From Bacteroidota bacterium (GTDB lineage: Bacteria > Bacteroidota > Ignavibacteria > UBA10030 > UBA6906), in contig DATJAS010000029.1 of NCBI GenBank assembly GCA_035516035.1, positions 14,434 through 78,433 of the forward strand: DNA of 64,000 nt. Reading direction: 5' to 3'. A program made the translations under genes and the position numbers. The notes under the pieces are model-generated. The model worked only from the letters and a program-made list of their open reading frames with translations, made no database searches and was not told where the DNA came from. Shown here in pieces: positions 43,994 through 45,565 of this stretch. Every line of letters begins with the position of its first letter. Position 1 is the first letter of the stretch.

Positions 43994-44032
43994 TGACTCT
44001 TTGAAACATTCATCGTAATATTACGATATAAT
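43994..44032 (+). promoter_or_regulatory. putative promoter (-35 TTGACT, 17 nt spacer, -10 TAATAT) with palindromic operator cgtaatattacg overlapping the -10, upstream of hgcA
   Basis: Perfect 12-bp palindrome. 15/17 nt shared with site upstream of arsC (atcg[t/c]aatattacgat). Confidence 0.55.
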
Positions 44033-44104
44033 CAAGAGGGGGAAGTCTACGCTGGATTCTCCTGTAGCAACGCACCGAACCTGACTTTCTCGTAGCAGGA
44101 CTTC

Positions 44105-45073
44105 ATGGAACCATCAGATCGACGTTGCGGATGCTCGAAGTCTCCGGACTCGATATCCGCTCCGGGCATCGAAACAAGGCAGGAACGCTGTCAATCTGCC
44201 TCCAAACCTGCGTCTTCAGGTGTCCTTGATCGGAAGTTCGTCACGGGAATTGTCCGGACTCCGGCGGGGGAGATCCCGCAGGTATCCACGCGCCTGAGTA
44301 CGCTCGACTATCTCGGAGCAATGCGAGCCCGGTGGGGCATCAGGAGGGATCAGTACAGGGTGAATCCCGGGCTCTATGCAATCGGGACGCCTGATGAACG
44401 ATCAGACGTCCTTGTCACTGCCAACTACAAGCTCACGTTCGATACCGTACGCAGGAATCTCGCGGGCTTGAACGTGTGGCTGATGGTGCTCGACACCAGG
44501 GGCATCAATGTCTGGTGCGCAGCCGGGAAAGGGACATTTGGAACGGAGGAGGTTGTCCGAAGAATTCGGGCGACATCCCTTGAGAAAGTAGTTCTCCACA
44601 GACGGCTGATTCTCCCGCAATTGGGAGCGACCGGGGTTGCGGCACACCTGGTCAAGAAGGCGTCCGGTTTTGCCGTTCTCTTTGGGCCTGTCCGGGCAAC
44701 TGACATTCAATCGTTCATCCGGGCCGATCACAAAGCTACGAAGCCGATGAGGCTGGTCACTTTCGGGTGGTTCGACAGGCTTGTCGTCACCCCGAACGAT
44801 TTCTTGTTCGGCATCCGGTATCTGATTGCAGTCGTGCTCGCGTACGCGCTGCTTTCGAGCATCACACGGAGCGGATTGTCGTTGGAGGGTGGAATCCGAC
44901 AGGCGCCGATGGCCGCCGTGAACATAGGATTAAGCTATTTCGCCGGAATTGTTCTTACGCCTCTCTTGCTCCCGTTTATCCCCATTCGCATGTTCGCGTT
45001 CAAAGGATATGTCGTCGGTCTGGTACTCACCGGGATTCTGGCGGTGAGTGGTATGCTCAGCGATCTCGGTTAG
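44105..45073 (+). CDS. hgcA: mercury methylation corrinoid protein HgcA (corrinoid-binding domain + C-terminal multi-TM domain)
   Basis: Cap-helix motif NVWCAAGKGTFGT (the conserved N(V/I)WCA(A/G)GK signature). Strong similarity of surrounding block (VLVTANYKLTFDTVRRNLAG...HRRLILPQLGATGVAAH) to HgcA. 4-5 C-terminal TM helices. No ferredoxin hgcB adjacent. Confidence 0.8.
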   Translation: MEPSDRRCGCSKSPDSISAPGIETRQERCQSASKPASSGVLDRKFVTGIVRTPAGEIPQVSTRLSTLDYLGAMRARWGIRRDQYRVNPGLYAIGTPDERSDVLVTANYKLTFDTVRRNLAGLNVWLMVLDTRGINVWCAAGKGTFGTEEVVRRIRATSLEKVVLHRRLILPQLGATGVAAHLVKKASGFAVLFGPVRATDIQSFIRADHKATKPMRLVTFGWFDRLVVTPNDFLFGIRYLIAVVLAYALLSSITRSGLSLEGGIRQAPMAAVNIGLSYFAGIVLTPLLLPFIPIRMFAFKGYVVGLVLTGILAVSGMLSDLG

Positions 45074-45192
45074 AGCCGGCGTGGGGTGTGCCGCGGCCAT
45101 CCTCCAGGGTGTCCTGAAAAACACAGAACCCACCTGTGGTTGCTCCGGTGACAACATCAACTGCAATTGAGCTGACGGTCTGAAGCGAAGGT

Positions 45193-45513
45193 ATGGGCCT
45201 CTCAAAAATAGAATCATTCGCCGGCCGCCAGAAGCGCATAGCCGATCTGGCAAAGGCCCTTGCACATCCGGCAAGAGTGGCGATCCTCGAGTTCCTCGCA
45301 AAGCAGACAACCTGCGTCTGCGGTGACATCGTCGACCAGCTTCCCCTGTCCCAGTCCACTGTGTCTCAGCACCTTGCGGAACTCAAGCGCGTAGGGCTCA
45401 TCAAAGGGGAGATAGAGGGACCCCGCGTGTGCTACTGCATCGATAAGAGAGCATGGGATGACGCAAAGGACCTTCTCACCCAATTCCTCACCGACGTCAA
45501 GAAGTGTTGCTAA
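45193..45513 (+). CDS. arsR: ArsR/SmtB-family metalloregulatory transcriptional repressor
   Basis: HTH with CVC metal-binding motif ([12 protein letters not shown]). C-terminal vicinal cysteines (KKCC). Confidence 0.85.
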
Positions 45514-45519
45514 AAAAAT

Positions 45520-45565
45520 TTGCCTTGCCGTATCGCAATATTACGATTAATCCATAAAACGGAGG
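45520..45565 (+). promoter_or_regulatory. putative promoter (-35 TTGCCT, 16 nt spacer, -10 TACGAT) with near-palindromic operator atcgcaatattacgat, followed by GGAGG RBS of arsC
   Basis: Operator shares the aatattacgat core with the hgcA upstream site. Likely ArsR binding site. Confidence 0.55.

Follow-up and report, generated by a model that had tools for sequence, protein, structure and literature searches.

Paired ATCG-N8-CGAT palindromes as probable ArsR operators in an arsenic-resistance island with an hgcAB remnant

A 64 kb stretch of the Bacteroidota contig DATJAS010000029.1 (assembly GCA_035516035.1, positions 14,434–78,433; hereafter the window) carries two copies of a palindromic box of the form ATCG-N8-CGAT. 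The first, O1, lies upstream of a truncated mercury-methylation gene (hgcA'), and the second, O2, lies between the repressor gene arsR and the arsenate reductase gene arsC, which is followed by the arsenite efflux gene acr3 (Table 1). The two boxes are probably the operators of the ArsR protein encoded between them, and a single ArsR regulon is the best reading of the arrangement, since the hgcA'-arsR unit and arsC-acr3 both lie downstream of a box.

The two palindromes

O1, ATCGTAATATTACGAT, is a perfect palindrome, and O2, ATCGCAATATTACGAT, which carries a C at position 5, is palindromic at 15 of 16 positions and matches O1 at 15 of 16. The initial annotation had recognized the first site as a perfect 12-mer, CGTAATATTACG (44014–44025), which is indeed present, although the full perfect palindrome is 16 bp long (44012–44027); its near-palindrome at the second site is also real but was placed one base too far downstream (45533–45548 rather than 45532–45547). 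From centre to centre, 11 bp (about one helical turn) separate the half-sites ATCGT and ACGAT. O2 begins 18 nt past the arsR stop codon and lies 22 nt ahead of the arsC ATG, which is itself preceded by a GGAGG ribosome-binding site.

A search of the window at up to three mismatches returned these two sites and no others (four strand-hits compared with 0.18 expected), and none of 100 shuffled sequences reached four strand-hits. These shuffles, together with the conservation across loci described below, rule out a chance origin of the pair. Segmental duplication of a promoter is likewise ruled out because the likeness between the two regions, as delimited by a repeat finder, spans only ∼16–21 nt.

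Conservation of the box in related loci

A species-level genome scan, built on an alignment of four ArsR proteins and the patterns C[IV]CGDIVD and EGP[RK]VCYC, returned more than 590 ArsR relatives. The counts given here for genome loci rest on the best 80, which all belong to Bacteroidota, Ignavibacteriota or Balneolaceae except for two metagenome-assembled genomes (MAGs) labelled only 'bacterium'. O1 was found in 78 of the 80 loci, at a modal distance of 9 bp from the arsR ATG, and O2 in 62, where the modal distance from the last arsR codon is 21 nt (18 nt past the stop). Across 809 kb of related DNA, 131 matches to the box with at most two mismatches flank arsR and one lies elsewhere. Neither arm, ATCG or CGAT, varies among 81 O1 sites, and both are almost without variation in 65 O2 sites. 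O1 typically has T at position 5 and A at position 12, whereas 46 of the 65 O2 sites have C5 or G12 (G12 in 17 of the 65), and one half-site of O2 is therefore systematically altered.

The usual order of the module in these loci is O1-arsR-O2-arsM-(GNAT)-arsC-(hgcA-hgcB)-acr3, with hgcAB present in seven of the 80. The three contigs that encode the closest intact HgcA proteins (L004, L005 and L006) have exactly two boxes each, whatever gene comes after arsR; one box lies inside a TTGACA-17-T[AT][AT]TAT promoter and the other directly past the arsR stop. Their gene orders are O1-arsR-O2-arsM-...-hgcA-hgcB-arsC-acr3 in L004, O1-hgcA-hgcB-arsR-O2-arsC in L005 and O1-arsR-O2-hgcA-hgcB-arsC-acr3 in L006. 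In terms of this layout, the window and L005 are variants in which hgcAB lies between O1 and arsR. L005 also contains ATGGGATGA (Met-Gly-stop) at positions 122–131, 7 nt past O1, where canonical loci start arsR with ATGGGA. To judge from its sequence and position, it looks like a relic, which would indicate that the O1 promoter was taken over from a junction of O1 with arsR as hgcAB moved in between the two.

The converse approach started from the motif: metagenome contigs were scanned for the exact string ATCGYAATATTRCGAT, and 80 of the 120 stretches obtained were examined. Frequent occurrence at non-promoter positions, which had been raised in the initial annotation as an objection to be checked, was not seen, with 55 of these 80 motif-picked stretches being ars-linked. 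An ArsR homologue with 41–63% identity is encoded in 50 of them, and in 45 of those 50 the box lies no more than 20 bp upstream of the arsR start, often with a second box ∼21 nt past the arsR stop. In L099, L102, L106, L117 and L150 the box adjoins arsM, acr3, arsC or an incomplete arsR truncated where the contig ends; L102, L117 and L150 have a stand-alone box upstream of acr3 or arsC, and arsR is not found near it.

Two further observations concern individual contigs. L168 (metagenome contig Ga0210102_1009009) has the order O1-acr3-arsR-arsC, with the box 1.2 kb upstream of arsR, and is another lineage with a cargo gene between O1 and arsR, like hgcA' in the window. L089 (4911–4987) and L097 (676–752), both contigs with a GC content of 0.28, have an exact box and, 61 bp from it, another copy that reads ATTGTAATATTACAAT; neither contig yielded an ArsR or ars homologue, and the motif may have an unrelated role in them or be served by a highly divergent regulator.

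The palindromes could in principle belong to another regulator, or be recombination or repeat elements, RNA hairpins or terminators, and the sequence could indeed form a weak 6 bp RNA hairpin. However, the box accompanies arsR at constant distances over phylum-level divergence, is essentially confined to arsR flanks in the related DNA (131 matches versus one) and has ArsR as the only regulator consistently adjacent to it. No T run follows the box. An intrinsic terminator at O2 was rejected, as none was called in the window, L004, L005 or L006, and neither the hgcA leader nor O2 gave an Rfam match at gathering score, which led to the rejection of a riboswitch or another RNA element at these places. 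Any reading of the palindromes other than as ArsR sites is highly improbable.

Promoter context and mode of action

The promoter P1 scores 9 of 12 and its −10 element, which in Bacteroidetes nomenclature corresponds to the −7 element, coincides with the centre of the O1 palindrome; the same geometry recurs in L004, L005 and L006 with scores of 10–11 of 12 in a sigma-70-like scan. The initial description of both palindromes as overlapping the −10 element of a sigma-70-like promoter therefore holds for O1 (TTGACT-17-TAATAT) but is not confirmed for O2, where the best candidate found by eye, TTGCCT (45520–45525) and TACGAT (45542–45547) with a 16 nt spacer, scores only 8 of 12. Between hgcA' and arsR in the window, neither a terminator nor another promoter was called, and P1 is therefore predicted to drive arsR through the hgcA' remnant. 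The A7T3 tract directly past the arsR stop is the counterpart of an A/T tract that is kept 9–14 bp upstream of O2 in the relatives, at up to ∼1.6 bits per position.

In the mechanism that we propose for the single regulon, an ArsR homodimer would bind ATCG-N8-CGAT. On O1 it would cover the −10 element of P1 and exclude RNA polymerase, such that the hgcA'-'hgcB-arsR transcript would be repressed and arsR would be autoregulated through O1. O2 would gate arsC-acr3-orf124 by blocking read-through from P1, by occluding a weak internal promoter (TTGCCT-16-TACGAT) or by both, and it may gate read-through from P1 instead of marking a separate transcription unit. Arsenite, to which gene context and the conserved cysteines point as the inducer, would be bound by Cys41/43 on helix α3 together with Cys80/82 and/or Cys105/106 and would free ArsR from both sites. 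DNA looping between O1 and O2 was also considered and is unsupported because their 359–390 bp spacing is spread over all helical phases and shows no phasing.

Several points weigh against this interpretation or parts of it. The centre of the palindrome could be conserved partly as a −10 box, although the ATCG and CGAT arms are not explained in this way. No sigma-70-like site of at least 9 of 12 is found at O2 in the window, L005 or L006, and a match at this level is present in 15 of 66 O2 contexts, which bears on the mode of action of O2. The conservation of Cys41, Cys43, Cys80 and Cys82 is partly built in by the two patterns used in the genome scan, and the nearest solved ArsR-family structures are distant (E values of 1e-7 to 1e-4). 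Finally, methylarsenite or some other thiophilic species could take the place of As(III) as the inducer.

The initial annotation regarded hgcA-arsR and arsC-acr3 as two units in one ArsR regulon. The common regulon agrees with the way in which the box tracks ArsR (78 and 62 of 80 genome loci and 55 of 80 motif-first stretches), whereas the existence of two independent units does not follow, as no second promoter is evident. If O2 were the operator of an independent internal promoter, P2, then hgcA'-arsR and arsC-acr3 would be separately initiated and both repressed by ArsR. Such a promoter would be consistent with the conserved A/T tract and the TTGnnn behind it, which lie a set distance upstream of O2, with the eight of 66 O2 loci that reach at least 9 of 12 with a −10 element at TACGAT (palindrome positions 11–16), a geometry that the window shares at 8 of 12, and with the position of O2 just ahead of arsC and its ribosome-binding site. 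The stand-alone boxes upstream of acr3 or arsC in L102, L117 and L150 imply that the box can work within a promoter. On the other hand, the promoter match that is lacking at O2 in the window, L005 and L006 is the very one that this model needs, the G12 found in 17 of 65 O2 sites removes the key A of the TACGAT −10 element, and the Bacteroidetes-type TTG-N17-23-TAnnTTTG arrangement centred on the box occurs at one of 66 O2 sites compared with 20 of 81 O1 sites. The 18 of 80 loci without O2 must, moreover, express arsM and the downstream genes by read-through from P1. Separate initiation at O2 is a serious possibility that falls somewhat short of an even chance.

Alternatively, P1 could be the sole promoter, with O2-bound ArsR acting as a roadblock that stalls polymerases past arsR and with the weak RNA–DNA hybrid over the A/T tract favouring release of the transcript; arsR would thereby be expressed at a basal level independently of the structural genes. 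Every transcript that starts at P1 meets O2 on its way, with no terminator between arsR and O2, and the A/T tract, which is the most conserved feature outside the box, occurs as T8 or A7T3, both of which give weak hybrids. The loci without O2 show read-through from P1 to be the default, and the G12 variants, which spoil TACGAT as a −10 element, fit this scheme as well. The roadblock is, however, entirely inferential, the A/T tract might just as well serve as an UP element or as a −35 region, and the stand-alone boxes upstream of acr3 or arsC show that the box is used at promoters too. We know of no roadblock described for the ArsR family, and a roadblock at O2 appears rather doubtful.

The ArsR protein and known systems

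The product of arsR matches HTH_5 (49.9 bits, cut-off 22) and NF033788 (74.2 bits, cut-off 55). The recognition helix, which is preceded by the CVC motif at Cys41/43, and all six cysteines are kept in 79–81 of 81 ArsR sequences. As in the classical ArsR/SmtB systems (R773/Escherichia coli ArsR, SmtB, CzrA and CadC), the predicted regulator is a small winged-helix homodimer encoded in its own operon, an inverted repeat (imperfect or perfect; O1 in the window) is sited on the promoter, the regulator would repress its own gene, and arsC and acr3 would be among the genes that it controls. The Cys-X-Cys motif at the N-terminus of helix α3 is shared with R773 ArsR (Cys32/Cys34). The window type differs from the classical systems in the second box conserved directly past the arsR stop, which leaves the regulator gene bracketed by probable operators, and in the additional invariant CYC (Cys80/82) and C-terminal CC of the protein. 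In sequence, ATCG-N8-CGAT also appears to differ from the 12-2-12 TGAA...TTCA-type operators and the R773 operator as these are usually described.

The transcription of the hgcAB genes in Pseudodesulfovibrio mercurii ND132 depends on ArsR2 (DND132_1054) and responds to arsenic (Gionfriddo et al., bioRxiv 10.1101/2022.10.17.512643; AEM 2023). ArsR2 and the window ArsR share a CxC...CxC pattern of four cysteines (Cys47/49/86/88 in ND132 and Cys41/43/80/82 in the window, ∼39 residues apart). In both cases an ArsR-family regulator is co-transcribed with hgcAB, as a prediction and with the hgcA'B' remnant in the window. The arsR2 gene of ND132 precedes hgcAB and has no further ars genes around it. 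In L004 and L006, too, arsR is located upstream of hgcAB. In the window, by contrast, arsR follows the hgcA'B' remnant as part of a complete ars operon, comparison across loci defines the operator, and the hgcAB pair has been inactivated.

The same preprint (bioRxiv 10.1101/2022.10.17.512643) reports arsR and ars genes adjoining hgcAB in MAGs of Ignavibacteriae and Bacteroidetes and does not mention an operator, palindrome or promoter. The flanking of hgcAB by arsR, arsC, arsM and acr3 in Bacteroidetes/Ignavibacteria MAGs was described at the gene level by McDaniel et al. (2020; PMC7438021), and their neighbourhood of arsR, arsM, arsC, hgcA, hgcB and acr3 is also that of seven of the 80 genome loci and of L004 and L006. 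To this description the present analysis adds the two cis-elements (O1 and O2), a different gene order, O1-hgcAB-arsR-O2, and a case of decay. In the literature searched, no match to the core of the box was found. Control of hgcAB by ArsR and the presence of hgcAB within ars clusters are thus established. The system is of a known kind, and its cis-element, like the arrangement in two sites, appears not to have been described before.

The hgcAB remnant

The truncated HgcA retains the cap-helix motif NVWCAAGKG (residues 135–143) and scores 343.9 bits against NF040863 (cut-off 275), with only profile positions 1–253 of 325 being matched. HgcA homologues are 382–387 residues long, and their last ∼60 residues, found in all nine, are missing from the window protein, which ends past its third transmembrane helix. 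The lost segment comprises two transmembrane helices and the conserved SSFMAMNFTGSST...GVKKEM. The collection copy of the window HgcA (P0001) differs by one residue. The hgcB remnant aligns with the C-terminus of the 99-residue HgcB of L004, L005 and L006, and neither [4Fe-4S] motif (CxxCxxCxxxCP) is present in it.

The junction of the deletion lies at ∼45056–45060. In a blastn comparison with L005, window positions 44126–45021 correspond to 223–1121 and 45060–45549 to 1558–2049, leaving ∼400 bp of L005 unmatched; the lost stretch takes in the first ∼62 codons of hgcB with both [4Fe-4S] motifs. In this genome, the later deletion of ∼400 bp has destroyed an hgcAB pair that lay between O1 and arsR. 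The deletion allele is also present, at 99.5–99.9% identity, in L001, L002, L003, L087 and L088. An assembly artefact was rejected on the grounds that these five contigs come from different samples, and the deletion is real and fixed in the population.

Removal of the whole HgcA transmembrane domain is cited in PMC7305189 (from Smith et al., 2015) as abolishing methylation. From the sequences of the two remnants, a working HgcAB pair is not expected in this genome. Loss of hgcB is reportedly also fatal to methylation, a finding attributed to Parks and colleagues in 2013. The arsenite-inducible mercury methylation put forward in the initial annotation cannot be inferred here because hgcA lacks its last ∼60 codons and hgcB is reduced to 37 codons; what is left of hgcA is now no more than a long leader ahead of arsR. 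Since the truncated HgcA passes the curated model and keeps the cap-helix motif, surveys based on hgcA as a marker would count this organism as a methylator even though hgcB is gone, which is a warning for marker-gene surveys.

Island and neighbouring genes

The cassette amounts to a common type of arsenic-resistance switch, carried by a small imported island in a host that is annotated as a Bacteroidota MAG. The GC content drops from ∼0.65 to 0.50–0.57 exactly between 44000 and 47500, and the 3.6 kb island (43980–47511) is flanked by a 96 nt direct repeat with 89% identity between the copies, which derive from the 3' end of a carboxylesterase gene (Table 1). Empty sites, with the carboxylesterase and metallophosphoesterase genes adjacent and the same flanks, are found in two lineages, L209/L210 and L211, the carboxylesterases of which are 70% and 73% identical to that of the window, respectively. 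No integrase or transposase is present in the island.

The arsC product, at 111.7 bits, does not reach the TIGR02691 equivalog cut-off (174.3). The final island gene, orf124, has no Pfam or NCBIfam family match and is not present in the 80 related ars loci; its GC content of 0.49 is the lowest in the island. Outside the left edge, past the metallophosphoesterase gene and ahead of the left repeat, a GC-rich perfect palindrome, CGGCGCCTGCGGCGCCGCAGGCGCCG (43818–43843), may be a terminator hairpin. It is overlapped, as is the left repeat, by a sub-threshold Rfam match to RsmW on the minus strand (43813–43927; 31.8 bits compared with 52, E = 0.011), which is regarded as chance.

Table 1. Features of the arsenic-resistance island and its edges (window coordinates)
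Feature	Start	End	Strand	Description
Left repeat copy	43884	43979	-	Duplicated non-functional 3' end of carboxylesterase gene (GGLYSRECDLFDEIASSWRQMRHSSR, stop included); left island edge
Promoter P1	43993	44021	+	-35 TTGACT (43993-43998), 17 nt spacer, -10 TAATAT (44016-44021)
Operator O1	44012	44027	.	ATCG-N8-CGAT, perfect 16 bp palindrome (probable operator)
hgcA'	44105	45073	+	Truncated HgcA, 322 residues, three transmembrane helices
hgcB remnant	45057	45170	+	Last 37 codons (SAISVRAGVGCAAAILQGVLKNTEPTCGCSGDNINCN, then stop), out of frame with hgcA', no start codon
arsR	45193	45513	+	ArsR/SmtB repressor, 106 residues, Cys41, 43, 80, 82, 105 and 106
A7T3 tract	45512	45521	+	Directly past arsR stop; counterpart of conserved A/T tract
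Operator O2	45532	45547	.	C at position 5 (probable operator)
arsC	45570	46001	+	Arsenate reductase, low-molecular-weight phosphatase (thioredoxin-coupled) type; LMWPc
acr3	46041	47090	+	Arsenite efflux permease; TIGR00832 449.8 bits (cut-off 282.8)
orf124	47087	47461	+	124 residues, last island gene; start overlaps acr3 stop by 4 bp
Right repeat copy	47512	47607	-	Genuine 3' end of carboxylesterase gene (47519-49147, minus); right island edge

Implications

Bacteroidota and Ignavibacteriota have been reported to dominate hgcA transcription in fens (PMC7438021). It is conceivable, although we consider it unlikely, that intact hgcAB in these phyla belongs to the ATCG-N8-CGAT ArsR regulon and that O2 with its A/T tract also forms a repressor-dependent roadblock or termination gate. 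If this were true, arsenite would be the main transcriptional trigger of methylmercury-gene expression in Bacteroidota and Ignavibacteriota. To our knowledge, such a roadblock or termination-gate layout behind arsR has not been described for ArsR-family repressors.

A cultured carrier of the module exists in Chryseosolibacter indicus PWU20 (L036). The box provides a searchable cis-element for a widespread, uncharacterised ArsR clade, with more than 590 relatives in one scan, and it lets arsenic-responsive genes be predicted in Bacteroidota and Ignavibacteriota, including intact hgcAB in seven of the 80 closest loci.

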